Source: an uncultured bacterium (GTDB lineage Bacteria > RBG-13-61-14 > CAYWKU01). Taken from it: DNA of 44,122 nt. Both the position numbers and the translations under genes were made by a program. This document shows positions 9,769 to 30,352 of this stretch, piece after piece (within the stretch, counting starts at the first letter, position 1; every line of letters begins with the position of its first letter). A model generated the notes under the pieces. That model was not told where the DNA came from. It made no database searches and saw only the letters and a list, made by a program, of their open reading frames with translations. The stretch is taken from assembly GCA_964503115.1 (NCBI GenBank), contig CAZDAF010000001.1:1-44122 (forward strand). The letters run 5' to 3'.

Positions 9769-10527
9769 TTATTTTCGCACCCGGTGCGGTTCAAACAAGC
9801 GGCTTTTGAAGATGCCCCGGCTGTGAAGCAGGTAAGTTAACACAACCCTGAGCACTCCCAGACCGTACTTGACGCTCGTTAGAAAACTGACGCTCGATGA
9901 ATCTTCGGCGTATCGAGTTCGAACGGGTATTTCCTTGAAACGCAGCCCCGCATCGAGGCATTGCACGATAATTTCGTTGTCGAAAACAAAATCGTTCGAG
10001 TTGGATTTATAGTTGACGCTTTCGAGCGCACGGCTGCTGAAGGCTCGGTATCCCGTGTGGAACTCGCTGAACGAAGTGCCGAGCGCCTTGTTTTCGATCC
10101 ATGTGAGGGTTTTGTTGAATATATACTTGTAAGCGGGCATCCCGCCCGCAATCGGATCGCCGAGCATACGGCTGGCAAGCACCACGTCCGCCTCGCCGCC
10201 CCGGATGGGTTCGACCAGGTCGGGTATTATGCGCGGGTCGTACTGGTAATCGGGATGAAGCATCACGACGATCTCGGCGCCCATCGCCAGCGCGTGGGTG
10301 TAGCATGTTTTCTGGTTGGCGCCGTAGCCGAGGTTTTTGGGGTGCTCGATGACCTCGAGATTCAAATCGCGGGCGACGTCGGCGGTATCGTCGCTCGAAG
10401 CGTCATCCACCAGCAGAACGGCGTCGCAGCTTCCTTCCGGTATGGCGTGGCATGTCTTGGCGAGCGTTTGCGCCGCGTTATAAGCGGGCATGACCACCAC
10501 TACTTTCGGACTTGTTTCTTCGACCAT
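9769..10527 (-). CDS. GT2-family glycosyltransferase, polyprenyl-phosphate sugar synthase (DPM1/ArnC)-like, soluble form
   Basis: Contains VVVMPAYNAAQTL, LLVDDASSDDT and the HPDYQYDP (DxD-like) region. It is 252 aa with no C-terminal TM helices. Confidence 0.85.
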   Translation of the reverse strand: MVEETSPKVVVVMPAYNAAQTLAKTCHAIPEGSCDAVLLVDDASSDDTADVARDLNLEVIEHPKNLGYGANQKTCYTHALAMGAEIVVMLHPDYQYDPRIIPDLVEPIRGGEADVVLASRMLGDPIAGGMPAYKYIFNKTLTWIENKALGTSFSEFHTGYRAFSSRALESVNYKSNSNDFVFDNEIIVQCLDAGLRFKEIPVRTRYAEDSSSVSFLTSVKYGLGVLRVVLTYLLHSRGIFKSRLFEPHRVRK

Positions 10528-11553: not shown

Positions 11554-11627
11554 GGCGGTGTAGCTCAGGTGGTTAGAGCATACGGCTCATATCCGTAGTG
11601 TCGTGGGTTCGACTCCCTCCACCGCCA
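11554..11627 (+). tRNA. tRNA with CAT anticodon (elongator tRNA-Met; lysidine-modified tRNA-Ile2 not excluded)
   Basis: It folds by eye into a cloverleaf. The acceptor stem is GGCGGTG/CACCGCC, the D arm is GCTC..GAGC, the anticodon stem is TACGG/CCGTA with loop CTCATAT, and the T arm is GTGGG TTCGACT CCCTC. Positions 1 and 72 are paired, so it is not an initiator tRNA. Confidence 0.85.
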
Positions 11628-11630: not shown

Positions 11631-11659
11631 GCGGCGCAAATTACAAGCGCCGCTTTTTT
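11631..11659 (+). terminator. Rho-independent terminator after tRNA-Met
   Basis: A 7-bp GC stem GCGGCGC/GCGCCGC (11631-37 and 11647-53), a 9-nt loop, then TTTTTT (11654-59). The hairpin also abuts the stop codon of the convergent FGE-like gene. Confidence 0.6.
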
Positions 11660-12546
11660 CATTTAGTATCGGCCACGCACCTGAACCCGCCGCTATCGTC
11701 GGCTTGAAAGGTTCTTCTATATCCTCTCCGCCATGTAGTGGCCGCTTCCCGGCCCAAGGCCCAAGAGCCGCCTCGGACGGTATATGCATGCCACTCGGGG
11801 CGTAAATCTTCAGGAATGGACTTGTAAGATTCCGGGCCTTTGGGGTTGCGTTTGGGAGAGCGGGGGTAGTAATACGGCCAGTATATGTCCCACGTCCATT
11901 CGTATACGTTACCTGCCATATCGTAAACGCCGTAGGGGCTTTTATCCTCGGGAAAACTGCCCACCGGAGCGGTTCGGGCATATCCGTCCGATGCGTCCTC
12001 CCACGGAGATTTAGCAAGTCCGTGATTGGTTTTTTTCGGATCCCACTTGTTCCCCCATGGGTATTTCCTGCCGTCTTTACCGCGCGCGGCCTTCTCCCAT
12101 TCGGCTTCAGTCGGCAATCGCTTGCCCATCGTCCTGCAATAACGCTTTGCCATTCCGCGCCTTACGCAAACTACCGGGTGATCGGCCAACTCCAACGGGT
12201 ATTCGTGGTTCTCATTCCAAATCTTGGGAGGGGAGACGCCTCTCTCAACCTTCTGGCAGTTTGGGCCCAAAGGAGTTTTCTTTCCTCGAAGATGGTCACG
12301 TAAATCAATGAAGTTCTTGTAATCCGCATTGGTCACTTCATATTTATCTATTGCGTAAGCATCAAGGTACACGCGGTGTGGAGGTTGATGCGAAAAGTGT
12401 CCCTCTTTGCTTCCCATTGTGAACCATCCGGCGGGAATAAGCACCATATTGTCCGGGATTTCATTGACCGCATCGATGGATTCATAGGGAAGAATCGCCA
12501 GTACCAACGCGGCTAATACCAATTTACTTACATTACCTTTCATCAT
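11659..12546 (-). CDS. Secreted formylglycine-generating-enzyme (SUMF1/EgtB/PvdO) family protein
   Basis: Signal peptide MMKGNVSKLVLAALVLAILPYESIDA. Motifs MVLIPAGWFTMGS, HRVYLDAYAIDKYEVTN, GNVYEWTWD and VRGGSW. GGAGGAGG lies 2 nt before the ATG at 12546 (about 5 nt from its first GGAGG), so the track start at 12591 is probably too early. Confidence 0.85.
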   Translation of the reverse strand: MMKGNVSKLVLAALVLAILPYESIDAVNEIPDNMVLIPAGWFTMGSKEGHFSHQPPHRVYLDAYAIDKYEVTNADYKNFIDLRDHLRGKKTPLGPNCQKVERGVSPPKIWNENHEYPLELADHPVVCVRRGMAKRYCRTMGKRLPTEAEWEKAARGKDGRKYPWGNKWDPKKTNHGLAKSPWEDASDGYARTAPVGSFPEDKSPYGVYDMAGNVYEWTWDIYWPYYYPRSPKRNPKGPESYKSIPEDLRPEWHAYTVRGGSWALGREAATTWRRGYRRTFQADDSGGFRCVADTK

Positions 12547-12606
12547 GTCCTCCTCCCGTTTCAGCGTATCATATTTCCGCTTTACATTCAAATCCCTTCC
12601 TCGGGA

Positions 12607-13830
12607 TTAAAGTATTCTCTTAAGAAAATCGTTATATTTTTCCCCCACCTGCGACCACAGACAACCCGCCTCGACGAACTCCCGGGCGCGCATGCCCAGC
12701 TCTCTTCGCTCGTCGGAGTTGTTTACGGCCCAGCGCATGACTTCAAGTATGTCATCCACCTCCGACGGCCCGCAACTTATTTTTTTTACCACCTCGTCGG
12801 GGAACTCGCTGAAAGTTTCCGCATCCGTCACCACGCATGCGCGGCCCGCAGCCAATATCTGCATAAGGGACTGTGAACTCGATCCATAAACGGGTTTGCG
12901 AAGATTCAGGCACAAATCGGCACTGAATAAATATAGCCGGATTTTTTCCATAAGCACGAAGGACGCATCAATTAGAACTCGATCCCCTAGATTCCTTTGC
13001 GCCACCGCACGGTCTATATCCAGGTCGGGGCTGCGAGGGCCGACGAGCAACAGCATTGCGTCGGGCGCCTCTGTCACGAACCGGGCCCATGCGTCGAGAA
13101 TAGGCTCGATCCGTTTGTGCCGTTGGATGTAACCGAAAACGAGCGCGACGAAGGTATGCGGTTTGACGCCCTTTTCGTTCAGGCCGAGCGATTCGCGTGC
13201 CGCATCGGCGGGCATTTGGGCCGGAGCGGGTTGCACTGCAAGAGGCACCGTCATTATCGGGCACTCTGCGCCCGCGCGACGCACGGCGTCGGCCACCCAT
13301 CGGCTGTGAGTGATTATGCCCCGAGCGCAGCGCACCACTCGCCTTAAAAATGTAAAATAGTTCCGTTTAGACTCTTCGTCGAGATAAAGATTGTGAAGTA
13401 TACGCTGCGAAAATTTTCCACCGCCTTCCTTCAACGGGGCCATCATGCGCCTGACACCGTCCGCCCCTTCGTTCCGCAGAAAATCCGCCCAGAATTTCGC
13501 TCTCGATTTCCCCTCCCAGTACGAGATTACCATATCGTACAGCGTCGAGTCGTGAAGTGTTATCACTCCTCCGTGCCGGAGTATGTCCGGGTACATGTAG
13601 GCGTGCATCGGGCCGTTGGATGCCTGAAAAAGCGCGATATCCTCTTCGCCGCGAAACAGCTCGCGGTTTCTTACTTCGCCCAGGTCTTCGACAGCTTCCG
13701 GGCGATAGTCGCCATCTATGTAAAAGACGATTTTCCAGTTATCGGCCAATTGCCGGGCAAGATTGTCTGCATAATGCGCCACACCGCTCGGTAGAGGACT
13801 CAACGGGCTGAAAAACGCCAGTGTCTTCAT
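12607..13830 (-). CDS. GT4-family (GT-B fold) glycosyltransferase
   Basis: The N-terminus MKTLAFFSPLSPLPSGVAHY is typical of GT4 donors. The C-terminal half has a GT1/GT4-like nucleotide-sugar binding region (SSSQSLMQILAAGRACVVTD). Its ATG overlaps the upstream stop (ATGA at 13827-13830). Confidence 0.75.
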   Translation of the reverse strand: MKTLAFFSPLSPLPSGVAHYADNLARQLADNWKIVFYIDGDYRPEAVEDLGEVRNRELFRGEEDIALFQASNGPMHAYMYPDILRHGGVITLHDSTLYDMVISYWEGKSRAKFWADFLRNEGADGVRRMMAPLKEGGGKFSQRILHNLYLDEESKRNYFTFLRRVVRCARGIITHSRWVADAVRRAGAECPIMTVPLAVQPAPAQMPADAARESLGLNEKGVKPHTFVALVFGYIQRHKRIEPILDAWARFVTEAPDAMLLLVGPRSPDLDIDRAVAQRNLGDRVLIDASFVLMEKIRLYLFSADLCLNLRKPVYGSSSQSLMQILAAGRACVVTDAETFSEFPDEVVKKISCGPSEVDDILEVMRWAVNNSDERRELGMRAREFVEAGCLWSQVGEKYNDFLKRIL

Positions 13831-16502
13831 CGGCCCGCCGATTCGGTGTAGATTTGCAGCAGCTTCTCGATGTGGAAGCCCTTGGCGTACCGTTCCATAG
13901 CATGCTGCCGGTGGTTTAATCCCATGGTTTTTCTCAGAGCGGGGTCTTTCGCCAGCCTGTCGATTCTTATGGCCATAGCGCGTGTGCGGCCTCGAGGAAC
14001 CAGATCGCCCCCTTCACCGTCGACGAGCCATTCGCCGACCGCGCCGACGTCAAACGCCACCACGGGCCTCGCGTGCGCCGCCGCCTCGACGCCGACGTAT
14101 CCAAACGGCTCCGGCCAGATACTGGTAAAAACCACCGCATGGCACTTACGGTACTCGAGCTCCATCCGTCGAGGAGTAAGTTGTCCTGCGAATTCGAGCC
14201 GGTCAATCAATTCGAGTTCCACCGCTTTGCGTCTCACAAAATCTTCGGCCGGGCCGGTACCCGCCATCACGGCGGTCCATTCGGATTTGAGGTGATACAG
14301 TGCTTCGAGAAACAAGTCAGGCCCCTTGTCCGGCACCACCATTCGCCCCGCCCACAGTATCCGCAAGGGAATTTCATCGTCCGGCTCGTTGAAATCTTCT
14401 GGAAACTCGACGTAAAGGGGCAAAACATCGACACTGCCGGCATCGATTCCGTTAGCGATAAGCTCCGAAGCCATAAACCGGGTGGTGGTGATAATCCGGG
14501 GCATTTTGCGCGCCGCATCGATCCCGTCGAGCACGTGGCCGAGCCGCGACATTAAAAGCAGAGGCCGCCTGCCAAGCACCATACAGCCTCCATCGAGCAA
14601 CTTGTCTATACATGCCCACCCGGCGGGCAACGAGCAGACGCGGCCGCATGTCCACATGCGATTCATCGATGGGCAGGTCAGGTTGTGATCGTGGACGGTT
14701 CTTATAGTGGGCGCCAGTTCTGCGCAGATATCCATTATCCGAGCGGGCCCGACGTTGTGGATATGTATCAGGTCGGGCTTGAAATCTCGCGCGGCGGCTT
14801 TGATGTCTCGCCGCATATCGCTAACAGGAACGGGATCCCATAACCCGCGAACGCGATACCGCTCGAAATCCATGCCTTCCCAATCGCCGGCCTCATCAAA
14901 CGCCCACGCCACCTTGACGTTGCGACCTGCAAGTTCGTCCGAAATGTCCCGTATATATCGCTCCGTCCCGCCCGCTGCGCCTCCGTGATCGTTGACCATC
15001 AGGATGCGCATGCTTTCAGCGGATTTTGCTTTAGCTTGCGGTTTTAAAGCAGGCGACGACGCCGGTAACCTTCGCCTCGCTTCGTGCGCCGCAGTTTTCG
15101 CTAACGTCACCGGCACTGCCAGGAGAGTCCGGGCATCGCGAGCCACATCGCGCAGCCATCCTTTCCGGTCGTGTTGCAGACGCAGCAATCTTATAGCCCT
15201 GCGCCGCCGGGATTCGCTTATATCGGGAGCAAGAAGCAGGTGGTATAAACCCTGCCTGACGTGCACCGTACGGTATGCTTTTACCATGTCGCTTGCGGAA
15301 TATCCTTCGAGCTCGAAAATCGGTTTCGGGCTCGTCCCGAAATGCCGCGTGGTGCGCCAATCGTCGAGAAAGCGGCCTTCCTTTTGTATTACGTCCCATA
15401 CCTTTGTGCCGGGATAAGGCGCCAGGATGTTGAAATGCGCCCAGTCGAGACCGAGAGTTTTTGCATAGTCGAGGCTCGCCACCGTGCCTTCGTAAGTGTC
15501 GCCCGGCAGGCCGATGATAAAGTAACCTCCGACCCGCAGCCCAATCTCCTTCGATATATGTACGGCACGCTCGATATCGGCGAGCTTTTCGCCTTTTCTC
15601 AATGAAGTGAAAATCTCCGGGTTCCCCGTTTCCACGCCGAATATCACCGTATGACACCCTGCCACCGCCATTGCTTCCAACAAATCGGGCGTCACGCGGT
15701 CGGCACGGATGCCGTTCGGGCAACTCCATCGCATGCCCAGCTTCCGGTCGATTATAAGCCTGCAAATTTCTCCGGCGCGCTCCACGTTGTGAGTAAAAGT
15801 GTCATCGAGTACATCGAACTCCGGGAATCCCCACTTGTCCCTGGCGCGCTCGAGTTCGTCCACGACACTTGAAGGGGATCGGTATCGCCACTTGCGCCCA
15901 CTGACTTTGCCTACCGAGCAATAAATGCATCCATGCGGGCAGCCACGGCTCGTGACAAGGGGGTAATGATGATCGAGCAGTTTGCTGCCGACGAACCGGT
16001 CAAAGCTCGGAAAGGGAAGATCATCGAGGGCCATGGGTAATTCCGCCGGAATGCAACGCGTTCCACCCGCCGAGCGGAATATCAGGCCGTTTATTTCCGG
16101 AAAATCTCCCTTACCGTCCCATTTTGCCGGCAATTCCGGCAAGCTCACTTCCGCGTCTCCGGCGATGGCGGCATCAATTTGAGGCACTTGCGCCAACAAC
16201 TCCTCGCCATAGAGCGTCACGTGCGGCCCGCCCGCAATTATGGGCGTGTGTTCAAATGCGGACTTAAGAACTTTCGATACATGGACGGAGGAGGTATAAG
16301 TGGCCGTTTTTATGCTTAACCCGAAGTATTCCGGCCGGTGCCGCTCGGCGATGCGCAGCAGGTTTGCGTCGCTCGGGTCGCCGTTGACCATATCGAGCAC
16401 AAGGTGGTCTATACCTGCCGCTTCGAGCGCGCCCGATAAATACGCGAGTCCCGCGTTTATGCCCGCCTGCTCGCCGGGGGGGTCTATGAGCAATATTCTC
16501 AC
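13827..16502 (-). CDS. Fusion protein: B12-binding-domain radical SAM enzyme (aa 1 to about 480) plus GT4 glycosyltransferase (aa 498-891)
   Basis: The N-terminus MRILLIDPP...IAGGPHVT is a cobalamin-binding Rossmann-like domain, and TSRGCPHGCIYCSV is the CxxxCxxC radical SAM cluster motif. An A/K/P/S-rich linker follows. MRILMVNDHGGAAGGTERY at aa 498 looks like a native GT4 N-terminus. SIWPEPFGYVGVEAAAHARPVVAFDVGAVGEWL is the GT4 EX7E region. It has a GTG start overlapping the upstream stop (GTGA). Confidence 0.85.
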   Translation of the reverse strand: MRILLIDPPGEQAGINAGLAYLSGALEAAGIDHLVLDMVNGDPSDANLLRIAERHRPEYFGLSIKTATYTSSVHVSKVLKSAFEHTPIIAGGPHVTLYGEELLAQVPQIDAAIAGDAEVSLPELPAKWDGKGDFPEINGLIFRSAGGTRCIPAELPMALDDLPFPSFDRFVGSKLLDHHYPLVTSRGCPHGCIYCSVGKVSGRKWRYRSPSSVVDELERARDKWGFPEFDVLDDTFTHNVERAGEICRLIIDRKLGMRWSCPNGIRADRVTPDLLEAMAVAGCHTVIFGVETGNPEIFTSLRKGEKLADIERAVHISKEIGLRVGGYFIIGLPGDTYEGTVASLDYAKTLGLDWAHFNILAPYPGTKVWDVIQKEGRFLDDWRTTRHFGTSPKPIFELEGYSASDMVKAYRTVHVRQGLYHLLLAPDISESRRRRAIRLLRLQHDRKGWLRDVARDARTLLAVPVTLAKTAAHEARRRLPASSPALKPQAKAKSAESMRILMVNDHGGAAGGTERYIRDISDELAGRNVKVAWAFDEAGDWEGMDFERYRVRGLWDPVPVSDMRRDIKAAARDFKPDLIHIHNVGPARIMDICAELAPTIRTVHDHNLTCPSMNRMWTCGRVCSLPAGWACIDKLLDGGCMVLGRRPLLLMSRLGHVLDGIDAARKMPRIITTTRFMASELIANGIDAGSVDVLPLYVEFPEDFNEPDDEIPLRILWAGRMVVPDKGPDLFLEALYHLKSEWTAVMAGTGPAEDFVRRKAVELELIDRLEFAGQLTPRRMELEYRKCHAVVFTSIWPEPFGYVGVEAAAHARPVVAFDVGAVGEWLVDGEGGDLVPRGRTRAMAIRIDRLAKDPALRKTMGLNHRQHAMERYAKGFHIEKLLQIYTESAGR

Positions 16503-19024
16503 AGTGGCGTCACCTCGATTTCCACTTCGATTTTCTCGCCGCCTGCCTCGCTGAACCAGACTATTTTTCGGTCCAACATATCCACAATGATTTTATACTT
16601 GCCGGGAACGGTGGGAGCGCGCGCCTTCAGGCTGACTTTCGCAGTCTCTCCGGGGGGAACGGACCTTTGCAGAAACCCGTAATTCAAGAGAGGCGCTTTG
16701 TCGGGATCGAGCTTATTGCCGGCTTCGTCAAACCAGTCATAAATGGAAAAAGTTATAACTCCTCGAAAATCGCCATTGGTGTCGAACCGACGCGCGCGCC
16801 ACAGGGTGTTACCTACGTTTTTAACGACCGCCTTGACTTCAAATTCCTCCCCGGCTTTTAGCCGTTGTGGAACTTCGAGCGTAATAAACTCCGCTTTGAG
16901 CAGGTCGGGAACGGTGCTGTCCGGGTAGTCTCCGATTTCCTGCCTAAATTTGATCTCTCGATGAAATTCGTCCGATCCCCGGATGGAAAAATTCACTATC
17001 CATTCATAATCCCCCTCGGATTCCGGCGCTGTGAAATTGAACGCCACCCATTGCTTTTCGCCGGGATCGAGCATGATTAAACCACGCAGGCGCTTGGATT
17101 GCTTTGATTTGTCGTGCGCGCCGCTTACCTTTGCAGTCGCCCCGAAATCGGCAAGCTCGAAGAAATAAACCGGCATATCACCCACGACGGAAAGACATAT
17201 CTCGACGTGGAATTGCGCTCCGGGCCTGACTCCGACAGGCACAAAGACTTCCTTAATTTCAAGACCTTCCCACTTGAGACGTCGCTCTTTATCGACCGGG
17301 TCGGGTACCTCGTACACGATGTCCGGACCTAACCGCTCGACCTCCGGGAGAAAAGTTCCCACCCGGCGGGCAAACCCGGCCGTATCGAAATTGTCATCCC
17401 ACTCGTATGAACCCGTATGTAACACAACGTATTTGACGCCAAGATACCTGAGTATGTTCACCGTCGCGCTCGAAGGGAATGCCGCCAGCGATTTGATCAC
17501 GTGCCTGCTGGTGTGAGGCAAAAATCCGGATCTGCCGTTGATGATATTTTTCCAGTGGTACGTCGAGTAATACATGTACTTGAAACCGAGAGGATCGCCG
17601 TCGCCCCATTTTTCTCTCGGCAATACGATTAAACTTGGCAGTTGGGGAATTTCGGCAATGGCGAAATCGTCGGGCTGCTTCGCCAGCCACCTGTAAACCC
17701 GGGGGACGGTATCTCCGCTTTTCACCTCATGATACGGAATCGGCGAGGAGTAAAATTCGGCGATAACCAACGCCGGAACGGCGAAAACCCATATCACCTT
17801 ACGGGAGCGACTCCTGATACGTTCCGACACGCGCATCATGCCGTATGCCGCCAGTATCGCCATTCCCATTTCGACCACGTATGCGAACCGCGATGGCACC
17901 CGCAGCGCTCCGAAACCGGGCAGGTAATATGCCGCCATGTACGGCAGCGGCACCGGCAGGCGATGCCAGCAGATATGCAACCACGGCCCCAGTGAAAAAA
18001 CGAACGCTACCGCCGCTACCCACAGGTAGGTTTTCTGCTCGCGCTCGAGTCGGCGCTTTGAGCGTGAGAACAGCCCCAAACCGGCCAATATAAGCACGCT
18101 TATACCCAGAAACAGGCGGTTTTCGTTCGGGTATGGGCTGTATCGATTCTCCAATTGGTACGTGATCCCTCCCCACAAGCGGTTCCAGGGCGGCGCCCGG
18201 AAATAATCCAGCGGATCCGCCGACATGCTTTCCGCTTCCGCGATGGTTCTCACCAACCCTTGCGATCTTGCTACCCGGTAATAAGGCGGCATCGTCGGCG
18301 CAATCATCAGAGCCACAAGCAGGCCCGCGCCTGTCAATCGAACCCAAAGCGCTTTGTCGAGCCTGCCACGGGCACGCACAAGTTCCACCATAAACACCAT
18401 TCCCACCGCCAGGCCGCCCGTGGCGGCAAGGTAGAAGCTGGACAAAGCATGAAGCCCGAAAAAAAGCCCGAAAAAAAGCGCATCGCTCCAGCGCCGCTCG
18501 TCCATCGTTCGGTGGAAAAACAATAACGCAAAGGGCAACCATTGAGAAGTCAGAAGCTGCGATTCGTGGCCCAGTTGACTGAACCTCCACGGGCAGTAAG
18601 CGTAAATGATTCCCGCGACCAGCGCTGCGGTGAAATTGCCGGTAAGACGGCGCGCCAGAAGAAACATACCCAGTCCGCCAAGCGCAAAACTGACGTAAGT
18701 TACTGCGTTGTGCGCGAAAATCGGGTTCGACGTAATCAGTAAAAACGGAGCGGCCAATATCGACGACGCAAGCAGGTGATCCGAGTACGCCAATGCGTTA
18801 TGATTGGGCCAGAAAATATTCGCGTCCCACAAACCGCCGAGCCCGGTGGTCAGTTTGTGAACGTCCCAGGCAAGTATCCATGTGTGGAGGAGGCCGTCCC
18901 AGCGGTCGTGCATTATGTTTCCCATGTTATAAGATATGGGCGCATACATAATAAAAGTCAGAAGCGCGAAAAAAATCGCCGCCACAACGGCTTCCAGCCA
19001 CACTCTCGAACGGTTCGCCGACAT
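16499..19024 (-). CDS. Large polytopic membrane protein, GT-C-fold (ArnT/PMT/YfhO-like) candidate glycosyltransferase with a C-terminal Ig-like/CARDB-like extracytoplasmic region
   Basis: The first 430 aa or so are multi-TM, with an early acidic/aromatic loop (HDRWDGLLHTWILAWDVHKL...WDANIFWP...YSDH) typical of GT-C-like proteins. The C-terminal 400 aa or so contain beta-rich repeats such as GEEFEVKAVVKNVGNTLW and PGETAKVSLKARAPTVPGKYKIIVDM. The exact family is not resolved by eye. Confidence 0.65.
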   Translation of the reverse strand: MSANRSRVWLEAVVAAIFFALLTFIMYAPISYNMGNIMHDRWDGLLHTWILAWDVHKLTTGLGGLWDANIFWPNHNALAYSDHLLASSILAAPFLLITSNPIFAHNAVTYVSFALGGLGMFLLARRLTGNFTAALVAGIIYAYCPWRFSQLGHESQLLTSQWLPFALLFFHRTMDERRWSDALFFGLFFGLHALSSFYLAATGGLAVGMVFMVELVRARGRLDKALWVRLTGAGLLVALMIAPTMPPYYRVARSQGLVRTIAEAESMSADPLDYFRAPPWNRLWGGITYQLENRYSPYPNENRLFLGISVLILAGLGLFSRSKRRLEREQKTYLWVAAVAFVFSLGPWLHICWHRLPVPLPYMAAYYLPGFGALRVPSRFAYVVEMGMAILAAYGMMRVSERIRSRSRKVIWVFAVPALVIAEFYSSPIPYHEVKSGDTVPRVYRWLAKQPDDFAIAEIPQLPSLIVLPREKWGDGDPLGFKYMYYSTYHWKNIINGRSGFLPHTSRHVIKSLAAFPSSATVNILRYLGVKYVVLHTGSYEWDDNFDTAGFARRVGTFLPEVERLGPDIVYEVPDPVDKERRLKWEGLEIKEVFVPVGVRPGAQFHVEICLSVVGDMPVYFFELADFGATAKVSGAHDKSKQSKRLRGLIMLDPGEKQWVAFNFTAPESEGDYEWIVNFSIRGSDEFHREIKFRQEIGDYPDSTVPDLLKAEFITLEVPQRLKAGEEFEVKAVVKNVGNTLWRARRFDTNGDFRGVITFSIYDWFDEAGNKLDPDKAPLLNYGFLQRSVPPGETAKVSLKARAPTVPGKYKIIVDMLDRKIVWFSEAGGEKIEVEIEVTPL

Positions 19025-19190
19025 GAACTTAAATTACCACAAACCGCCGCTGCCCAAAAGCGGCGTATAACCGGAAGACCTTCCGGGCAGGTCATAGGGA
19101 CATAACCCCGCCCTTGTAAAGTACGCATTCTCTGACTATGCTGAAAATTAGAGCTTTGTTTAAGTACCCTCGAAAAAGGAGGTCAATGCT

Positions 19191-22715: not shown

Positions 22716-23879
22716 ATGAAAGTGGCCGGTAAGACGGTATTGACGGGAACTCATTTCATGCACGGCGATCACGCATGTTGCGAGGGCGCCCTTGCGGCGG
22801 GATGCCTTTTCTTCGGCGGCTATCCTATAACGCCTGCGACCGAGGTTGCCGAGCGTATGTCGCGGCGACTGCCGGAAATAGGGGGCATTTACATCCAGAT
22901 GGAGGACGAGTTGGGCTCGATCGCCGCAGTGCTAGGCGCCAGTTGGGGCGGTACGAAGGCTATGACCAGCACTTCGGGGCCGGGATTTTCGCTCATGATG
23001 GAAAACATCGGCCTTGGCGTTTGCACCGAGACCCCGTGCGTTGTCTGCAACGTGCAACGAGCCGGGCCCAGTACGGGCCTGCCCACTCTGGCCGGCCAAG
23101 GGGATATGATGCAGGCTCGATGGGGGTCTCACGGACATTACGAGATAATCGCCCTTTCGCCATCAAGCCCGCAGGAGATGTTCGATTTCACCATCAGGGC
23201 TTTTAACTTAAGCGAGCAATTTCGTATTCCGGTCTTGATCATGTCCGACGAAGTGGTCGGTCACATGCTCGAACGCGTAGTGATCCCTCCCGAGAATGAG
23301 ATCGAACTCATCAAGCGCCGAAAACCGAAAGTATCTCCCGATCAGTACCTGCCATATAAGGCGGATCCCGACTGGATAGCGCCAATGGCCGACTTCGGAG
23401 ACGGGTATCGTATGCACATAACCGGCTTGACTCACGACGAAAGAGGCTACCCGGTCATGGACGCCACTACGCAGGAGAATATGATAACCAGACTGGTACG
23501 AAAAATTCGGGATAATACGGATAAAATAATCGATTACGACACTTTCGAACTCGACGACGCCGAAGTGGTCGTGGTAGCGTACGGCATCAGCGCGAGGTCT
23601 GCGAAGCGTGCGGTTCGCGATGCTCGACAAAAGGGTCTTCGTGCCGGCTTTATCAAGCTGAACACCGTCTGGCCTTTCCCTGAAGAGTTTATCCGCGACG
23701 TGGCCGGTAATGTACGGGCCATGCTCATGCCGGAGATCAATTACGGCCAGATGGTTCTCGAGCTCGAGCGTTGCGCTCAAGGCCGCTGCATGGTGCGGCT
23801 GGTGCAACATGCCGGTGGGGGCATCATCCCTCCCGGCTCCATCGTCGACGCCGTCGAGACCGCGCTAAAGGAGTCATAA
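22716..23879 (+). CDS. korA: 2-oxoacid:ferredoxin oxidoreductase alpha subunit
   Basis: Contains GYPITPATEV, TSGPGFSLM and the QRAGPSTGLPT motif typical of OFOR alpha subunits. About 387 aa. Confidence 0.9.
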   Translation: MKVAGKTVLTGTHFMHGDHACCEGALAAGCLFFGGYPITPATEVAERMSRRLPEIGGIYIQMEDELGSIAAVLGASWGGTKAMTSTSGPGFSLMMENIGLGVCTETPCVVCNVQRAGPSTGLPTLAGQGDMMQARWGSHGHYEIIALSPSSPQEMFDFTIRAFNLSEQFRIPVLIMSDEVVGHMLERVVIPPENEIELIKRRKPKVSPDQYLPYKADPDWIAPMADFGDGYRMHITGLTHDERGYPVMDATTQENMITRLVRKIRDNTDKIIDYDTFELDDAEVVVVAYGISARSAKRAVRDARQKGLRAGFIKLNTVWPFPEEFIRDVAGNVRAMLMPEINYGQMVLELERCAQGRCMVRLVQHAGGGIIPPGSIVDAVETALKES

Positions 23880-24772
23880 TGAGCGCCAGAAAAAGCAAAG
23901 CTATCACGCATCCTCAGGACGAACTGCTTCGTACCGACCGCATTCCGCACATATGGTGCTCCGGCTGCGGTATCGGGACGGTTTTCAGTTGCGTAATAGC
24001 GGCGATACAGAAATCCGGGTATCCGCTGGACGATGTGTCGATGATTTCCGGCATCGGCTGCACCGGGCGAATGGCGGGCTACATTAAGCTCGATTCGTTC
24101 CATACCACCCACGGCCGCGCTATTCCCTTTGCCACCGGGCTGAAGCTGGCTCGACCCGAAAGTCGCGTCTTGGTCGCATCGGGAGACGGCGACCTGTTGG
24201 CCATCGGCGGCAACCATCTTATACATGCCGCGCGGCGCAATATAGACATCACCGTCATCTGCGTCAATAACCTTAACTATGGCATGACCGGCGGACAGGT
24301 TGCCCCAAGCACGCCGTTCGGAGCGAAAACCGCCACCACACCTATCGGTTCACCTGAAGAACCTTTTAATTTTTGCGCGCTTGCCGCCGCTTGTGGAGCG
24401 GTATACGTTGCGCGCTGGACATCGTTGCATATTCGCAGGCTCACGGATTCGATTTCCGAGGCGATGCAAAAACGCGGATTCAGCTTCGTCGAAATACTTA
24501 CCCCCTGTCCCACATCGTTTGGCAGGCGCAACAAAATGCGAAATGCGCTCGACATCGTTAAATTTTACCACGAGCATTCGGTCATACGAAACGATATCGA
24601 CCCTAAAGAGGCAACTCTTGATTTCAGCAGAAACCTGGTAATGGGTAAGTTCGTGGATATTGAGCGGCCCACATTCCTGGATAATTACAGCCTGATAAAC
24701 AGGCGGGAACTTGGAGACTGGCCCAATCTGGAAGAAAAAGTCGCCGTGACCGGGAAAAGGATATCAAAGTAG
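23879..24772 (+). CDS. korB: 2-oxoacid:ferredoxin oxidoreductase beta subunit (TPP-binding)
   Basis: Contains WCSGCGIG, the GIGC cluster/TPP region, GDGD, and NNLNYGMTGGQ. The ATG overlaps the korA stop (TAATG). The track ORF starts earlier, at 23771, inside korA. Confidence 0.9.
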   Translation: MSARKSKAITHPQDELLRTDRIPHIWCSGCGIGTVFSCVIAAIQKSGYPLDDVSMISGIGCTGRMAGYIKLDSFHTTHGRAIPFATGLKLARPESRVLVASGDGDLLAIGGNHLIHAARRNIDITVICVNNLNYGMTGGQVAPSTPFGAKTATTPIGSPEEPFNFCALAAACGAVYVARWTSLHIRRLTDSISEAMQKRGFSFVEILTPCPTSFGRRNKMRNALDIVKFYHEHSVIRNDIDPKEATLDFSRNLVMGKFVDIERPTFLDNYSLINRRELGDWPNLEEKVAVTGKRISK

Positions 24773-24776
24773 AGCC

Positions 24777-25367
24777 ATGACGGATAAAACCGAAAAGGAA
24801 ATACTTATTACCGGCTTTGGCGGCCAGGGTATTATCCTCGCGGGGAATATCATGGGCAAAGCTGCGGCGCTATACGACAATAAACACGCCACCATGACCC
24901 AAGCCTATGGTCCCGAGGCTCGCGGGGGAGCTTGTTCGTCACAGGTTATGATAAGCGACGAGCAAATACTATATCCATACGTCGAGCGGCCACGGGTGCT
25001 GATCTGTATGAGCCAGGAAGGATATTCCAAAAATGTATCTTCACTGGATTCCGGCGGACTTCTAATTTGGGATACCGACCTCGTTCAAACCGATGATCCC
25101 GACCCGAGTTGGATTACCTGCCATATCCCGGCTACTCGTTTCGCAGAGGAGTTGGGCAACAAAATGATGGCCAACATTGTGATGCTGGGTTTTGTGTCTG
25201 CTGTGAGTGATCTGGTGAGTGTCGAGTCTTTTCGTAAAGCTGTCTTGGATTCCGTGCCACCTCACACAAAGGACAAAAACGTTGCGGCATTCGACCGGGG
25301 TCGCGAGTACGGTGAGGCTATCCTTAAAAGCCGGGCCAAGCAGGACGAAAACCGGCAGGAAGGATGA
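24777..25367 (+). CDS. korC: 2-oxoacid:ferredoxin oxidoreductase gamma subunit
   Basis: ILITGFGGQGIILAG and YGPEARGG are typical gamma-subunit motifs. Confidence 0.9.
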   Translation: MTDKTEKEILITGFGGQGIILAGNIMGKAAALYDNKHATMTQAYGPEARGGACSSQVMISDEQILYPYVERPRVLICMSQEGYSKNVSSLDSGGLLIWDTDLVQTDDPDPSWITCHIPATRFAEELGNKMMANIVMLGFVSAVSDLVSVESFRKAVLDSVPPHTKDKNVAAFDRGREYGEAILKSRAKQDENRQEG

Positions 25368-28300
25368 CGACCGCGGCGAAAATGGACGGCCCTGAAAAAG
25401 CCGTTTTGATAGTAGGGCCAGGCTACGGGGCGTTAAAAGTGGCCGAGGACCTTGCTCAGTCCGGCATCCCTGTGGTATGGGTGACACGAGCTCCTCACTT
25501 CCTCGAGTTGCCCGGTGGCATCGAGACCCTCGCGGAGTGGCCGGATGACCTTAATTTCCAGTTCAGGCCTCTATATCTCCGCGTGACCCGACATTCCCTG
25601 GTCACTCCCCTCACCCGGGCTCGAATAGAATCCATCGAGCGCATTCAAGACGACTATCGGGCCAATATAGTCCAGGATCCCATGTATGTGGATTACGACC
25701 TTTGCACCGGGTGCGGCCGGTGTATTGAAGTTTGCCCGCTCAACGAGTCCGAACAGCCTCCCCTGACGCGAACCCCCGCCTATTGCCCTTCGCGAGCCCT
25801 CGATCTTGACAAGCGTAAACTAAGCCGGTGTCGGGAGAGTTGCCCGCTGGGAGTTAACGTGCAGGCATATATGGCGCTGACGGCACAGGCGCGTTTTGAT
25901 GAAGCGCTTGCCGTGATAAAGGACGACAATCCTTTGCCCGGCGTTTGCGGCCGGGTTTGCCATCACCCTTGCGAGGAGTCGTGCCGCCGCGCCGAATTGG
26001 ATCAGGCGGTGGCCATACGGGACATCAAGCGTTTTTTGGCCGACCACGAAGCGCGCGGGCGGCAGCCCCGGCTCGATATTCCCGATAGTCCTCGCAGACC
26101 CGAACGTGTGGCGGTGATCGGCTCGGGGCCGGCGGGATTGACCGCCGCGCATTTCCTCAACCGGGCAGGTTTCCCGGTTACGATATTTGAGGCTATGCCT
26201 GAACCGGGGGGAATGCTGCGAGCCGGGATCAATGCATTCCGCCTCCCCAGACCGGTGTTGGATGCGGAAATAAAAGCCATTGTGGACGCTGGAGTCGAGA
26301 TATGCACCGACGTGATGGTAAGTTCCATTGATAACCTTTTTAGTGAAGGATTTCGGGCGGTGCTCCTTTGCACCGGCGCCCATCGCGATCTTCGCCTGAA
26401 TATACCGGGTGAGGATGCCGAGGGAATATTCGGCGCGGTTGAAATGCTAAAAGATTTCAACATTCGACAAAAAGTAAAGATTGGGGAAGACGTCGCCGTT
26501 ATAGGCGGCGGTAATTCCGCCGTGGACACCGCCCGGACCGCTATAAGGTTAGGGGCCCGGACAGTTACCATTTATTACCGCCGAAAGCACGAGGATATGC
26601 CGGCGGAGGAATTTGAAATCACGGCGGCCCAAGAAGAAGGAGTTCAAATCGAGTACTTGACGGCACCGGTTCGCGTGATTGTCGAGGAGGGAAAAGTTAC
26701 GGGACTCGATCTCACGCGCATGCGCCTGGGAGAAATCGACTCAAGCGGGCGCGGTCGACCGGAACCGATAGAAGGTTCGGAGTTCTCAGTAAAGGCGAAC
26801 ACGGTGATTGTCGCCATTAGTCAAGAACCCGACCTGGAGGAGACCGGTTTAGGTGGTGAGTTCGAGAAGGGCCGTGGCGGAAGGGTTATAGTGGATGAGC
26901 GCTGTTCCACATCCCGCAAGGGGGTTTTCGCAGCGGGCGATGTGGTTACCGGCCCTTCTACCGTAATCGGTTCAATGGCCGATGGCCGGATGGCGGCCGG
27001 GCGTGCAATAGAATATCTCACTGGCGAGCCGTCGGCATTCGTCAAGCTGTCGGCTGAGTCCCGTGGAGTCGGGGATTATCTGGATATTTCGGAGGATACC
27101 CCTCGCCAATGGCGCCCTGAGATGGCGCAACGGCAACCGAAAGTACGGTGCCGCGACTTCGAGGAAGTGAGTTTCGGACTCACCGCCGAGCAGGCGGTTG
27201 CCGAAGCACAACGTTGTATTCAATGCGGTTTGTGTTGTGAGTGTCGAGTTTGCGAGACCGCTTGTGCCGAAATAGGGGCAATCGACCACTTTCGGCCCAC
27301 CCGAAGTATTGAGGTTTTAAGCCCCGGCATAGTCGTCGCCGACGCCGATGAGATGCCCCAAAAAAACGATCTCGGAGATGAGCGGATTTACCGGTTAGGC
27401 GACTTCCAGCACACAACAGATCTCATGAATGTGATGGTAGCCGGCAGTGCTGCCGCCGGTCAGGTCATGGCCCATGCGGCGGTGCTTAGGACGGAGGTTG
27501 TTCCCGAGGAACCCAAGCCGCCGGAAATATCTGAGGAGTTGCGACTGGGAGTTTTCGTCTGCACCTGTAACGGAACCATGGCGCCTTCCGGAGCGCTCGA
27601 GCGTATCCGCGAATTGGTCGCCGACGTGCCGGGGGTTGAACACTGCGAGTTAATTTTCTCGGCCTGCCACCCTCGAGGTTCCGACCAGATAGCGCGCGCC
27701 GTGAAGGAACACCGGCTGACACGGGTCATTATGGCCTCATGTATATGCTGTCCGCTCGATTTTCATTGTATATCATGCAACGATCAGAGGACCCGCGCCA
27801 AAAAGCATCTTTTCGACCGGTTGGGCCTTTCAAGAAGCGATTTCGATATGATCAACATCAAGGATCATCTCCATCCCGAAGGAAAATCAGAGGACGAAAT
27901 TGTGGAGCGAGCTCGCTATCTCCTGCGCGGGGCTTTCATACGGGCCCGTTTCCTGGGCCCATTGCGACAGGGAACCACGGAAATCGGGAGTCGTATTCTC
28001 ATTCTGGGCGGATCGGAAGTGGGTATCAGTTGCGCCCTCAACCTGGACAACCAGGGGTTTCGCGTGCGGCTGGTTCATCGCTGCCGAATTAAGGATGGCC
28101 CCGAACCGCCCAAGTCGGTCTTGAAAAGACCGGTTGACCTGACTCAAGGCCGATCCATCACTCACGTCGAGGAGGCCGTGATCGAGGAAATCCGCGGAAA
28201 TGTGGGTGATTTCACGGTAATACTGGGCGAGGAAGGGCCGCAGCACAGATGGAGGGCCGACATCATTTGCCTGACCGACGAGCACTTGCTGCCCCTGGCC

Positions 28301-28735
28301 GTTCACGAGCATATGATGGGTCTTAAGAAGCTTTACCGTTACGACTTCGCTTTCTTCCATACTCCCCAGTTGGGTTTGTACCGGGTGATGCCCAGGACTT
28401 TGAAAAGAGTGACCGCTTTCGAGGCCGGCGCCGCCCTGGCCGCGCAGGTGGCCAGAGCTACGGCAGAGGCATTTATGAAAGATCACGAACTGAGCCCCCG
28501 GGTGGATCCTGAGCTATGCCGCGGATGCGGGCGCTGCGCCGATATATGCCTGTTCGACGCCATTAAGATGGTCGCTGATGCTCAGGGCGTTTTTACAGCT
28601 GAAGTATTGCGCTATAACTGCGTCGGATGCGGAGGATGCGTGGGCCGTTGTCCTGTAACGGCCTTGAATATGCCGTATTTCTCCAACCAGTTGGCAGAAG
28701 AAATAATGGTGGGCACTCTCGCTGGAGAGCGTTGA
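25364..28735 (+). CDS. Giant HdrA-like flavoprotein with an inserted GltD/NfnB-like NAD(P)H module (HdrL-type), 1123 aa
   Basis: The N-terminus has an HdrA-like dinucleotide fold (VLIVGPGYGALKVAEDL) and CTGCGRCIEVCP. About aa 150-550 are GltD-like: CPLGVNVQAY..., GRVCHHPCEESC, VAVIGSGPAGLTAA, VAVIGGGNSAVD and VFAAGDVVTGP. Then come CIQCGLCCECRVC, an HdrA-type segment LGVFVCTCNG...ASCICCP...INIKDH, a second Rossmann-like motif ILILGGSEVG, and a C-terminal 2x[4Fe-4S] pair (CRGCGRCADIC and CVGCGGCVGRCP). Its start overlaps the korC stop (ATGA). Confidence 0.8.
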   Translation: MTTAAKMDGPEKAVLIVGPGYGALKVAEDLAQSGIPVVWVTRAPHFLELPGGIETLAEWPDDLNFQFRPLYLRVTRHSLVTPLTRARIESIERIQDDYRANIVQDPMYVDYDLCTGCGRCIEVCPLNESEQPPLTRTPAYCPSRALDLDKRKLSRCRESCPLGVNVQAYMALTAQARFDEALAVIKDDNPLPGVCGRVCHHPCEESCRRAELDQAVAIRDIKRFLADHEARGRQPRLDIPDSPRRPERVAVIGSGPAGLTAAHFLNRAGFPVTIFEAMPEPGGMLRAGINAFRLPRPVLDAEIKAIVDAGVEICTDVMVSSIDNLFSEGFRAVLLCTGAHRDLRLNIPGEDAEGIFGAVEMLKDFNIRQKVKIGEDVAVIGGGNSAVDTARTAIRLGARTVTIYYRRKHEDMPAEEFEITAAQEEGVQIEYLTAPVRVIVEEGKVTGLDLTRMRLGEIDSSGRGRPEPIEGSEFSVKANTVIVAISQEPDLEETGLGGEFEKGRGGRVIVDERCSTSRKGVFAAGDVVTGPSTVIGSMADGRMAAGRAIEYLTGEPSAFVKLSAESRGVGDYLDISEDTPRQWRPEMAQRQPKVRCRDFEEVSFGLTAEQAVAEAQRCIQCGLCCECRVCETACAEIGAIDHFRPTRSIEVLSPGIVVADADEMPQKNDLGDERIYRLGDFQHTTDLMNVMVAGSAAAGQVMAHAAVLRTEVVPEEPKPPEISEELRLGVFVCTCNGTMAPSGALERIRELVADVPGVEHCELIFSACHPRGSDQIARAVKEHRLTRVIMASCICCPLDFHCISCNDQRTRAKKHLFDRLGLSRSDFDMINIKDHLHPEGKSEDEIVERARYLLRGAFIRARFLGPLRQGTTEIGSRILILGGSEVGISCALNLDNQGFRVRLVHRCRIKDGPEPPKSVLKRPVDLTQGRSITHVEEAVIEEIRGNVGDFTVILGEEGPQHRWRADIICLTDEHLLPLAVHEHMMGLKKLYRYDFAFFHTPQLGLYRVMPRTLKRVTAFEAGAALAAQVARATAEAFMKDHELSPRVDPELCRGCGRCADICLFDAIKMVADAQGVFTAEVLRYNCVGCGGCVGRCPVTALNMPYFSNQLAEEIMVGTLAGER

Positions 28736-28736
28736 C

Positions 28737-29159
28737 ATGGAAAAGATCAATTTACTGGGAATCTGCTGTAACTGGAGTCCTTACGCATGCTACAATGCCG
28801 CGGGAATGGCCAAGATGAAGATGCCGCCGAACTTCCGGCTGATACGTGTGATGTGTATTGGCCGGATTAACCAGGCCATGATCCTGAGGGCCTTCGAGTT
28901 TGGGGCGGACGGTGTGATACTTCTCGAATGCAAAGACGAGGACTGCCGCTACGGGCCCGGGCCGGAAGTCGGTCATGTCAACGTACAGCGGGTGCGGGAG
29001 ATTCTGCGTCTTCTCGGCATCGGTCAGAAGCGGTTGGTGGAGCGCAGCTTTTCCGCACACGAAAAAGAGGAGTTGGTCAAGGCGCTTTGGGATTTTGCCG
29101 AACTCATCGAGTCCATGGGGCCGAACCCGGCCAAACCCCGCCAGGAACGGGTGGTGTAA
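28737..29159 (+). CDS. mvhD: MvhD/FlpD-type hydrogenase iron-sulfur subunit (methyl-viologen-reducing hydrogenase delta-like)
   Basis: The MvhD signature is LLGICCNWSPYACYNAAGMAKMKMPPNFRLIRVMCIGRIN...GADGVILLECKDEDCRY. It starts 1 nt after the hdrL-like stop. Confidence 0.85.
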   Translation: MEKINLLGICCNWSPYACYNAAGMAKMKMPPNFRLIRVMCIGRINQAMILRAFEFGADGVILLECKDEDCRYGPGPEVGHVNVQRVREILRLLGIGQKRLVERSFSAHEKEELVKALWDFAELIESMGPNPAKPRQERVV

Positions 29160-30352
29160 TGCCTCTCGACGATCCCAGGATCGATCGGATAATACGGGAG
29201 TATTCGCTGTACCAGTGTCTCGAGTGCGGCAAGTGTTCGGCATCCTGCCCGCGCCTGCTTGCCGGGAAAGAGTACTCTCCCCGGCTTTTGGCTCACAAGC
29301 TCATCGCCGAACGGGAGGACGAGGCATTTATCGAAAACTCCGTGTGGGAGTGTCTTACTTGCGGCCTTTGCGAGGAGCGTTGCCCTTCGGGGGTCGAGTT
29401 CAGTCGTTTTATTCTCGAGATGCGCGCCTTGCTGGCCGAATCCAAGGGGCTTAAGGGATACCGTGCCCACGATGGGGCCTTGCACTCATGGATGAGGATG
29501 ATGACCTCGCCCGACCTCGAGCAAAACCGCCTGGACTGGGTGGACCCGGAACTTCGGGTGGCGTCTGAAGGCCCCATAGCTTTTTTCACCGGCTGTGCGC
29601 CGTATTTTGACGTGTTTTTTTCCGGTATCGAGGTGGATACTCTCTCCATTGTGCGGGATAGTATAAAGTTGCTCAATTTCCTGGATATCGAACCGGTTCT
29701 TTTAAAGGATGAACGCTGTTGCGGACACGACCTGTTATGGACGGGAGATATCGAGAACTTCGAGATACTTTGCAAACTGAATTACAACGAGTTTAAAGCC
29801 GCAGGCGTCGAAGAACTGGTGGTTTCGTGTCCCGAAGGTTTCCATGTGTTGAGTGAGCACATGCCGAAGGTGATTCCCGGTTTCGACATCAAGGTGACAT
29901 TACTTATCGACTTGCTCGAGCGCGAGATACGTAAAGGCGGTAAGGCTTTCCAGCCGTTTAAGCGAAGAGTTACCTACCAGGATCCGTGCCGTTTGGGACG
30001 CATGTCCGGCAGATACGATGGACCACGGGCGTTGCTTTCGATGGTTCCCGATTTGAAGTTACGTGAGATGGAAAACTCGGGCCGAAGCGCCATATGCTGC
30101 GGCAACAGCGGCTTTATCAATTGCGACGCCTATTCGAAGCGAATACAAGTACAAAGGCTGCGTGAGGCGAAAGCCACCGGCGCGGACCTTCTCGTTACGG
30201 CATGTCCTAAATGCATGATCCACCTGACATGCGCCATGTCGGATCCCAACAAGCGCGGGTCATTGAAAATGGAGATTCGAGATCTTGTGAGCGTACTGGC
30301 CGATCATATCGAATATTCCGAGGGAGAAGAATTTATAAAAGGCAGGAAATAA
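29159..30352 (+). CDS. HdrC/HdrB fusion (HdrD/GlpC-like): 2x[4Fe-4S] domain plus two CCG domains
   Basis: Ferredoxin motifs CLECGKCSASCP and CLTCGLCEERCP. The CCG domains contain ERCCGHD and AICCGNSG...TACPKCMIHL. The ATG overlaps the mvhD stop (TAATG). The track ORF start at 28928 lies inside mvhD and is rejected. Confidence 0.85.
   Translation: MPLDDPRIDRIIREYSLYQCLECGKCSASCPRLLAGKEYSPRLLAHKLIAEREDEAFIENSVWECLTCGLCEERCPSGVEFSRFILEMRALLAESKGLKGYRAHDGALHSWMRMMTSPDLEQNRLDWVDPELRVASEGPIAFFTGCAPYFDVFFSGIEVDTLSIVRDSIKLLNFLDIEPVLLKDERCCGHDLLWTGDIENFEILCKLNYNEFKAAGVEELVVSCPEGFHVLSEHMPKVIPGFDIKVTLLIDLLEREIRKGGKAFQPFKRRVTYQDPCRLGRMSGRYDGPRALLSMVPDLKLREMENSGRSAICCGNSGFINCDAYSKRIQVQRLREAKATGADLLVTACPKCMIHLTCAMSDPNKRGSLKMEIRDLVSVLADHIEYSEGEEFIKGRK

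Follow-up and report, generated by a model that had tools for sequence, protein, structure and literature searches.

An in-frame fusion of a B12-binding-domain radical SAM enzyme to a GT4 glycosyltransferase, with a probable role in cell-envelope glycan assembly

Cobalamin-type radical S-adenosylmethionine (rSAM) enzymes form the largest radical SAM class, and their substrates are mostly unassigned. The Arn pathway joins three elements: a GT2 that makes a polyprenyl-phosphate sugar, tailoring of the lipid-linked sugar in the cytoplasm and a GT-C enzyme outside the membrane. Among rSAM enzymes, HpnJ and Cds have been proposed to contract the ring of glycolipid sugars, each following glycosyl transfer (PMC13459092). 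The solved structures closest to the protein described here are those of MgmA (QCMT; 9CCB), a cobalamin-dependent glutamine C-methyltransferase of methyl-coenzyme M reductase, and AprD4 (6FD2), the apramycin 1,2-diol dehydratase, which acts on the sugar paromamine. AprD4 and ArsL are members of B12-rSAM similarity networks yet are cobalamin-free (review PMC12931638). Here we analyze a 44,122-nucleotide stretch of DNA from an uncultured bacterium (contig CAZDAF010000001.1; hereafter the window), in which a single 891-aa frame joins a B12-binding-domain rSAM module to a GT4 glycosyltransferase. We conclude from comparison with homologues that this fusion is genuine and maintained by selection, and we propose that it probably works in the cytoplasm as a bifunctional enzyme, within an assembly line for a cell-envelope glycan (or glycolipid). 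An earlier note on this DNA knew of no characterized enzyme with such an architecture, and our searches of the literature, NCBIfam and the PDB likewise found no publication, family model or solved structure that has it.

One frame and its junction

The fusion gene lies on the minus strand at 13827..16502; it starts with GTG at 16502 and ends in a stop codon at 13827-13829. Both the open-reading-frame list and a direct reading of the sequence give a single open frame with zero internal stops, as the earlier note had described; the strand is added here. A Shine-Dalgarno-like GAGGTGA (16510..16516, minus strand) lies 7-14 nt 5' of the start codon. The four domains that the note had anticipated (B12-binding, Radical_SAM, Glyco_transf_4 and Glycos_transf_1) all exceed their Pfam gathering scores. 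The two modules are separated by a linker, aa 480-497 (LPASSPALKPQAKAKSAES; 15012..15065, minus strand), which is rich in Ala, Lys, Pro and Ser and varies in sequence and length between homologues, and the GT4 module then opens at an internal ATG, Met498 (MRILMVNDHGG; 15009..15011, minus strand). In an AlphaFold2 model built on a 100-sequence alignment, the protein has a mean predicted local distance difference test (pLDDT) score of 94 and a predicted TM-score (pTM) of 0.80, and the linker, with the minimum pLDDT of 66, is the sole dip. Foldseek found no PDB chain covering both halves (query TM-score, TMq, <=0.41).

Such a frame could be an artefact, either of adjacent genes merged by an assembly or sequencing error or of an internal start from which a GT4 protein is made separately. 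Residue 498 is indeed an ATG followed by a GT4 N-terminus of native appearance, and one homologue, P0128 (393 aa, 60% identical to the GT4 half), was called as a stand-alone protein with a stop 10 codons upstream. However, that stop sits in the Nextera adapter that opens the contigs of P0128: in both L085 and L086, nucleotides 1-19 are the Nextera mosaic-end adapter AGATGTGTATAAGAGACAG, and the 3' ends are its reverse complement. The in-frame stop and the stand-alone call are thus both spurious products of the adapter at the contig start, and we rejected P0128 as a split-gene sibling. Another protein called as stand-alone, P0330, is probably a fragment of a P0009-like fusion. The internal ATG of the window also lacks any Shine-Dalgarno-like motif in the 25 nt ahead of it (AGCTAAAGCAAAATCCGCTGAAAGC), in contrast to the GAGGTGA at the true start, so that the earlier note's account of the linker and of this missing motif holds.

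A homologue search of 5.8 billion clustered proteins returned nine other clusters (P0002-P0010) that share all four domains and align over 100% of the query, with identities of 36-64%. Across the alignment of all 10 clusters the linker spans about 45-80 residues and the frame is never broken. Sibling genomes were where the earlier note would have looked for a stop dividing the gene in two; the eight sibling genes examined at the DNA level contain none. The column of Met498 holds Leu or Ile in 8 of the 10 aligned fusions, and the sibling codons aligned with the internal ATG read CTT, CTC, CTT, ATA, CTA and TTA, leaving all six locatable junctions without a normal start. Ahead of these codons there is no GGAG- or GAGG-type motif, and three siblings have a weak AAGG. 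At least seven contigs from NCBI, ENA, Logan and JGI assemblies, which may share raw data, carry a call for the identical 891-aa protein. In P0007 (1325 aa) the frame is longer still: a further GT4-like module, GT4', is joined in frame to rSAM-GT4 to give a triple fusion. A profile search of 1.84 billion representatives gave only four end-to-end matches (P0002, P0007, P0008 and P0010). Taken together, the adapter-borne stop of P0128, the frame held across a variable linker in 10 clusters, the sibling codons, the bare internal ATG and the recovery of the same protein from several assemblies effectively refute an artefact, whose probability we regard as negligible, and strongly support the earlier note's choice of a true fusion over two genes.

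Two enzyme halves and their predicted chemistry

All features of the fusion lie on the minus strand. The N-terminal half begins with a Rossmann-type B12-binding domain (aa 14-124; 16131..16463; PF02310, 62.8 bits against a cut-off of 32.1), followed by the Radical_SAM core (aa 183-345; 15468..15956; PF04055, 77.2 bits against 29.5), a partial TIM barrel. The core contains CPHGCIYC (aa 188-195, with C188, C192 and C195; 15918..15941), a CxxxCxxC motif of the kind that binds a 4Fe-4S cluster, which is unchanged in every one of the 10 fusions and of the 95 other clade members. This motif, the PF04055 score and the partial TIM-barrel fold place the half in the Radical SAM superfamily; the Rossmann domain ahead of the core gives it the class-B layout, from which cobalamin use is predicted. 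A C-terminal extension (aa 346-479; 15066..15467) with a long helix at 446-478 is modelled at a pLDDT of about 90-98, and its YDR-type tail occurs in stand-alone relatives too. Across the 105 clade members R206, D233/D234, R266/D268, K303 and G289/E291 are invariant or nearly so, the GVE residues G289 and E291 being invariant in both the fusion and the clade alignments. Seven residues that characterize only the GT4-fused clade (H284, T285, D353, W354, H356, H414 and Q417) are candidates for setting substrate specificity.

Foldseek searches of the PDB matched the N-terminal half to MgmA, TsrM, AprD4, CysS, TokK and OxsB, with a probability of 1.00 for MgmA, TsrM, AprD4 and TokK, and the fold matches the cobalamin-containing structures 9CCB, 6WTE and 7KDY. 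MgmA is the best match both by sequence (1.8e-23) and by structure (6.1e-25; target TM-score, TMt, 0.72), and AprD4 comes second among solved relatives by sequence (6.4e-21) and reaches 4.7e-22 in Foldseek (TMt 0.73). The publication on MgmA offers no motif transferable for deciding cobalamin binding by sequence.

The closeness of AprD4 raises an alternative in which the N-terminal domain would be a cobalamin-free Rossmann remnant and this half would carry out redox-neutral or dehydrating sugar chemistry, either epimerisation or a 1,2-diol dehydration that yields a deoxysugar. In certain rSAM epimerases the hydrogen atom is donated by a Cys. Among the 95 non-fusion clade members, C247 is conserved in 93, C283 in 92 and C261 in 73 (region 15468-16502); none of the three is conserved in MgmA, and they could form an auxiliary site or act as hydrogen-atom donors. 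The near-invariance of C247 and C283 would thus suit an AprD4-like enzyme, as would the aminoglycoside-sugar substrate of AprD4, its place among the top Foldseek matches and the cobalamin-free state that AprD4 and ArsL have in spite of their network (PMC12931638). Against it, PF02310 is matched well over its cut-off, and models of B12 families (HpnJ, BchE) align from residues 17-63 on, whereas the AprD4 model aligns to just the core, 183-379. Moreover, the top structural match, MgmA, contains cobalamin, and a GGPH motif within the B12-binding domain is essentially invariant across the 105 clade members (G91 in 105, G92 in 105, P93 in 100 and H94 in 103). On this evidence we find an AprD4-like enzyme rather unlikely.

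The best-scoring NCBIfam model is HpnJ (TIGR03471; 4.9e-47, 160.9 bits against a cut-off of 577.6). ApyD (154 against 750), MgmA/QCMT (TIGR04014; 100 against 360) and AprD4 (NF033070; 81 against 500) score lower, and no NCBIfam GT4 model reaches its cut-off on the fusion protein. By these scores the fusion is outside HpnJ, MgmA, AprD4, ApyD, BchE and any named GT4 equivalog. The rank of HpnJ, together with the proposal that HpnJ and Cds act on a sugar already transferred (PMC13459092) and the presence of the lipid glycosyltransferases PimA and MGlcDAG synthase among the GT4 relatives, suggests a second alternative: the GT4 would glycosylate a membrane lipid with a hexose or hexosamine, whose ring the rSAM half would then contract. 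The resulting carbocyclic polyol, an ether of the cyclitol or calditol type, would form a head group resistant to acid or hydrolysis. However, HpnJ scores 161 where 578 is required, the window annotation holds no shc, hpn or other hopanoid genes, and the GT-C and further glycosyltransferase partners, with the Wzm/Wzt loci of distant members described below, point to a polymer or oligosaccharide and not to a single head group. We therefore consider this alternative improbable.

The C-terminal half has the two Rossmann domains of the GT-B fold. Its acceptor-side domain (aa 498-700; 14403..15011) carries GGxE (G511, G512, E514) and matches Glyco_transf_4 (PF13439) over aa 511-695 with 48.8 bits against 28.5; its donor-side domain (aa 715-866; 13905..14360) matches Glycos_transf_1 (PF00534) with 85.6 bits against 26.4 and carries GRxxxxKG (R720, K726) and the EX7E motif, E798-PFGYVGV-E806 (14085..14111). 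Both domain scores, the fold, EX7E and the basic donor-phosphate ligands place this half in GT4, with retaining transfer predicted, and G511-G512-x-E514, R720, K726, E798 and E806 are invariant in 10 of 10 fusions. Foldseek matched it to BshA, GlgM, HepE, MshA and PimB' (TMt 0.72-0.81 for BshA, HepE, MshA and GlgM), the acceptor-side domain resembling BshA, MshA and HepE. CPHGCIYC, EX7E and a GT4 N-terminus at the ATG of residue 498 had all been picked out in the earlier note and are read in the sequence as it said. Judged by their motifs, both halves look active.

An insert rich in His and Cys, H604-D-H-x3-C610...C623...C631...C640 (14583..14693), interrupts the acceptor-side domain. H604, C610, C623, C631 and C640 are invariant in 10 of 10 fusions and form a possible metal site. 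We rejected the idea of an Fe-S or Zn site specific to the fusion: the H/C3 core (H604, C610, C623 and C631) is also invariant in 12 stand-alone GT4 relatives (P0128-P0144) that adjoin no rSAM gene, and for that reason the insert marks a GT4 subfamily rather than the fusion. A weak match of the fusion to the Pfam family GT4-conflict (20.7 against a cut-off of 26) had also suggested anti-phage defence. This is unsupported: PADLOC returned just a generic rSAM-core match to the candidate PDC-M51A (51 bits) for the fusion and nothing for its neighbours, and no specific defence protein was matched.

Genomic context and a proposed assembly line

The fusion gene lies between two genes on the same strand that each overlap it by 4 nt. 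Upstream, an 841-aa membrane protein is encoded at 16499..19024 (minus strand). Its Pfam matches to PMT_2 (28.1 against 26.1) and PTPS_related are weak, and its homologues match DUF6311 (PF19830), a family on which our literature search found no publication. Its model (pLDDT 94, pTM 0.91) has two C-terminal Ig-like domains and resembles STT3, PglB, DPY19, ArnT and AftA (Foldseek E 1e-7 to 1e-5; TMt 0.40-0.49). A DRWD motif, whose second Asp, D43, is near-invariant, follows the first transmembrane helix. Because of this resemblance and the position of DRWD, an acidic motif in the first external loop of a multi-span fold, we assign the protein from its model as a GT-C-fold transferase of the uncharacterized family DUF6311. 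Full-length relatives of it share contigs with 8 of the 10 fusion clusters. In more distant DUF6311 relatives, F5/8 type C (discoidin) domains replace the C-terminus.

Downstream, a 4-nt ATGA overlap leads into the gene for GT4' (12607..13830, minus strand), a GT4-like protein of 407 aa. At the position of EX7E it reads PVYGSSSxSLxQ, with both Glu gone, in all five orthologues (window, L001, L003, L088 and L089), and it is possibly a GT-B partner that is non-canonical or has no catalytic role. The co-directional run ends with an FGE-sulfatase-domain protein that has an N-terminal hydrophobic signal-like segment (11659..12591, minus strand) and that follows GT4' in L001 and L089 as well. Further along, at 9769..10527 (minus strand), is a 252-aa GT2 resembling the polyprenyl-phosphate sugar synthases AglJ, PpgS and Dol-P-hexose transferase. 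In the window a tRNA-Met (CAT) at 11554-11627 (plus strand) sits between the FGE-like gene and the genes for an alpha/beta hydrolase and this GT2. In L001 and L089 the GT2 is kept near the cassette, directly after the FGE gene, and the order GT-C, fusion, GT4', FGE, GT2 is preserved. Both 4-nt overlaps recur in L001 and L089, and L088 and L092 have the upstream overlap only. This arrangement couples translation of the fusion gene to that of both neighbours, the upstream GT-C gene and the downstream gene for GT4'. No riboswitch was found by Rfam upstream of the operon. A promoter and terminator scan gave no convincing signal near the fusion junction: promoter-like sites are at background (8 found against 8.0 expected), and terminator-like sites (21 against 13.6 ± 3.7 expected) are about two standard deviations above it.

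More distant relatives lie among polysaccharide genes. L090 carries the most divergent orthologue (37% identity) and L091 an independent rSAM-GT4 fusion, P0011, and in both the fusion stands beside Wzm and Wzt (with Wzt_C) in a polysaccharide locus with more GT4s and rSAMs. The further rSAMs of L090 (16389-19125) are a 458-aa B12-rSAM and a 445-aa rSAM; those of L091 are a B12-rSAM fused to a class-I methyltransferase (719 aa, 16869-19028) and a SPASM rSAM. P0009 (L004) has GT4s, an epimerase, an AsnB-like enzyme and a WecA-like transferase as neighbours. In a rough neighbour-joining tree of rSAM domains, those of P0001-P0010 fall in a single clade that has a GT2-fused clade as its sister, and separate fusions appear elsewhere: to GT4 in P0011, P0039/P0306 and P0400, to GT2 in P0076 and to an FkbM methyltransferase in P0061. 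The rSAM family has thus been fused independently to GT4 at least three times, to GT2 at least twice and to an FkbM methyltransferase. Because of the conserved fusion, these repeated GT4, GT2 and FkbM fusions and the polysaccharide loci, we provisionally assign this orphan rSAM clade, by sequence and context, to glycan or glycolipid tailoring.

The fusion would, in our proposal, act as follows. The GT4 half would transfer a hexose from a nucleotide sugar to a membrane-anchored acceptor, polyprenyl-phosphate-linked or lipid, at the inner membrane face. The tethered rSAM half would cleave SAM reductively to a 5'-deoxyadenosyl radical, which would take a hydrogen from a sugar of the same intermediate, and that sugar would then be modified. 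GT4' might extend the intermediate or serve as a scaffold, GT2 would make a polyprenyl-phosphate sugar, and the GT-C, using a lipid-linked donor at the outer face, would attach or decorate the product. By holding an oxygen-sensitive tailoring step beside glycosyl transfer, the fusion would remove the need to release the lipid-linked intermediate. For the chemistry of the rSAM half, cobalamin-dependent C-methylation seems to us somewhat short of an even chance; ring contraction or rearrangement, dehydration or epimerisation without cobalamin, and some other reaction are each about half as probable. In the most specific form of the proposal, one polypeptide, a triple fusion in one lineage, passes a lipid-linked sugar directly between its GT4 and cobalamin-dependent rSAM sites, and the sugar becomes C-methylated or carbocyclic while still bound to the lipid; the DUF6311 GT-C then deploys the product on the surface. 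We offer this direct hand-over only tentatively. The earlier note had already imagined a sugar or glycolipid made and radically modified in one assembly line; the 4-nt overlaps with two glycosyltransferase genes and the GT4, GT2 and FkbM fusions support that view, though as context and not as proof. Cobamide use by the organism is plausible, because a corrinoid methyltransferase set lies at 41310-43823 (plus strand): a URO-D-like methyltransferase, a 220-aa B12-binding corrinoid protein and a Met_synt_B12 activation-like protein, the corrinoid proteins being encoded at 42472-43823.

The loci of L090 and L091 also suggest that the enzyme might terminate or cap an ABC-transporter-dependent polysaccharide, the GT4 half adding the last sugar and the rSAM half installing a cap that is read by the carbohydrate-binding domain of Wzt. 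WbdD-type terminators are a functional analogue of such an enzyme. The orthologue in L090 and P0011 in L091 have Wzm and Wzt with Wzt_C at their side, and in L091 a B12-rSAM is fused to a class-I methyltransferase. However, the window and the six closest relatives have a GT-C and no nearby Wzm/Wzt, and nothing indicates that the modification is terminal; we give a capping role only a small chance of being right.

Several observations weigh against the bifunctional assembly-line enzyme that we favour. The annotation of the 44-kb window includes no initiating phosphoglycosyltransferase, flippase or Wzm/Wzt, and a close stand-alone rSAM relative, P0300, has no adjacent glycosyltransferase. GT4 enzymes also make plain membrane glycolipids, as the PimA and Mgs-type matches recall. 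No curated family cut-off is reached, so the chemistry is not transferable by homology, and the two nearest solved relatives diverge, MgmA being a B12 methylase and AprD4 a B12-free diol dehydratase. The B12-binding domain call does not prove cobalamin use, because AprD4 has such a domain and binds no cobalamin. Finally, a defined mutual packing of the two modules is suggested by the pTM of 0.80, and by that value only.

If the sugar is handed over directly, a large and widespread orphan B12-rSAM clade (in DPANN, Bathyarchaeia, Omnitrophota, Desulfobacterota and Dehalococcoidia) would consist of glycan-tailoring enzymes. The conserved covalent link between rSAM and glycosyltransferase is a Rosetta-stone clue to such a role, and the fusion is a tractable entry point, with substrate-making and substrate-modifying steps on one protein. 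The cassette also provides a first functional context for the GT-C family DUF6311. Were the product a C-methylated or carbocyclic envelope sugar, it would represent a new surface modification in uncultured anaerobes and a possible biomarker.

Distribution and comparison with known systems

The rSAM-GT4 architecture is rare, not unique. Our searches turned up no characterized enzyme of this build, and the databases contain at least three further independent rSAM-GT4 fusions. The 80 loci returned from species-representative genomes contain no orthologous fusion, all being stand-alone paralogues at 26-42% identity; the matches there that seemed to be full-length (L007, L010 and L025) were rejected as joins of neighbouring genes. 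Tandem copies are frequent among the stand-alone rSAM relatives, which abound in DPANN, Bathyarchaeia, Omnitrophota, Desulfobacterota and Dehalococcoidia. Three giant proteins (P0301, P0304 and P0329; 2096-2633 aa) have 5-6 separate rSAM-profile matches each and by this count contain several B12-rSAM modules per polypeptide. Intein domains occur in four relatives of the rSAM half (P0064, P0071, P0073 and P0081; PF14890, with PF14528 in P0081), and inteins thus appear to be inserted in B12-rSAM genes.

Elsewhere in the window, which contains no rRNA gene, the plus strand carries two other gene sets. At 22716-30352 a three-subunit 2-oxoacid:ferredoxin oxidoreductase is followed by a 1123-aa ferredoxin-Pyr_redox_2 fusion and an HdrD-like CCG/Fer4 protein, a possible electron-bifurcating or heterodisulfide-type module. 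An alpha-glucan cluster at 30782-39188 comprises a GlgC-like nucleotidyltransferase, three consecutive GH57 genes and a GalT/HIT-like gene; one GH57 has 4-alpha-glucanotransferase C-domains and one a branching-enzyme C-domain. A second tRNA (44069-44122, plus strand) is cut by the window end.

MgmA shares with the N-terminal half the Rossmann B12 domain, the rSAM barrel and CxxxCxxC; however, the two are only 22% identical, and MgmA is a single module of about 420-450 residues that acts on a protein side chain, lacks a glycosyltransferase and has another genomic context. AprD4 resembles the half in its sugar substrate and B12-like N-terminal domain, but it is a soluble, cobalamin-free enzyme of secondary metabolism without a fused glycosyltransferase, and the alignment to its NF033070 model is limited to the core. 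The C-terminal half has the GT-B fold, EX7E and GRxxxxKG in common with the retaining GT4 enzymes BshA, MshA, HepE, PimA and GlgM, from which it differs in sequence (14-19% identity), in its fusion to an rSAM module and in its His/Cys insert (H604, C610, C623, C631), which it shares only with a small uncharacterized GT4 subfamily.

At the level of pathways, HpnI/HpnK/HpnJ (hopanoid cyclitol ether) and the calditol synthase Cds offer the precedent of glycosyl transfer to a membrane lipid followed by rSAM rearrangement of that sugar. In those systems the steps belong to separate proteins, and HpnI is a GT2 and not a GT4, whereas the window has no hopanoid or tetraether genes and the partners of the fusion are a GT-C and further GT4s. 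Genes for Wzm/Wzt-dependent export are absent from the annotation of the 44-kb window, though such genes adjoin the fusions in L090 and L091. The cassette has the same combination of GT2, tailoring enzyme and GT-C as the ArnC/ArnD/ArnT and PpgS/GT-C-type systems; it differs in that its GT-C belongs to DUF6311, with likeness at the fold level only, and in that its tailoring enzyme would be an rSAM module fused to a GT4. The fusion is assembled from known parts, and its main value lies in the functional link that it gives.

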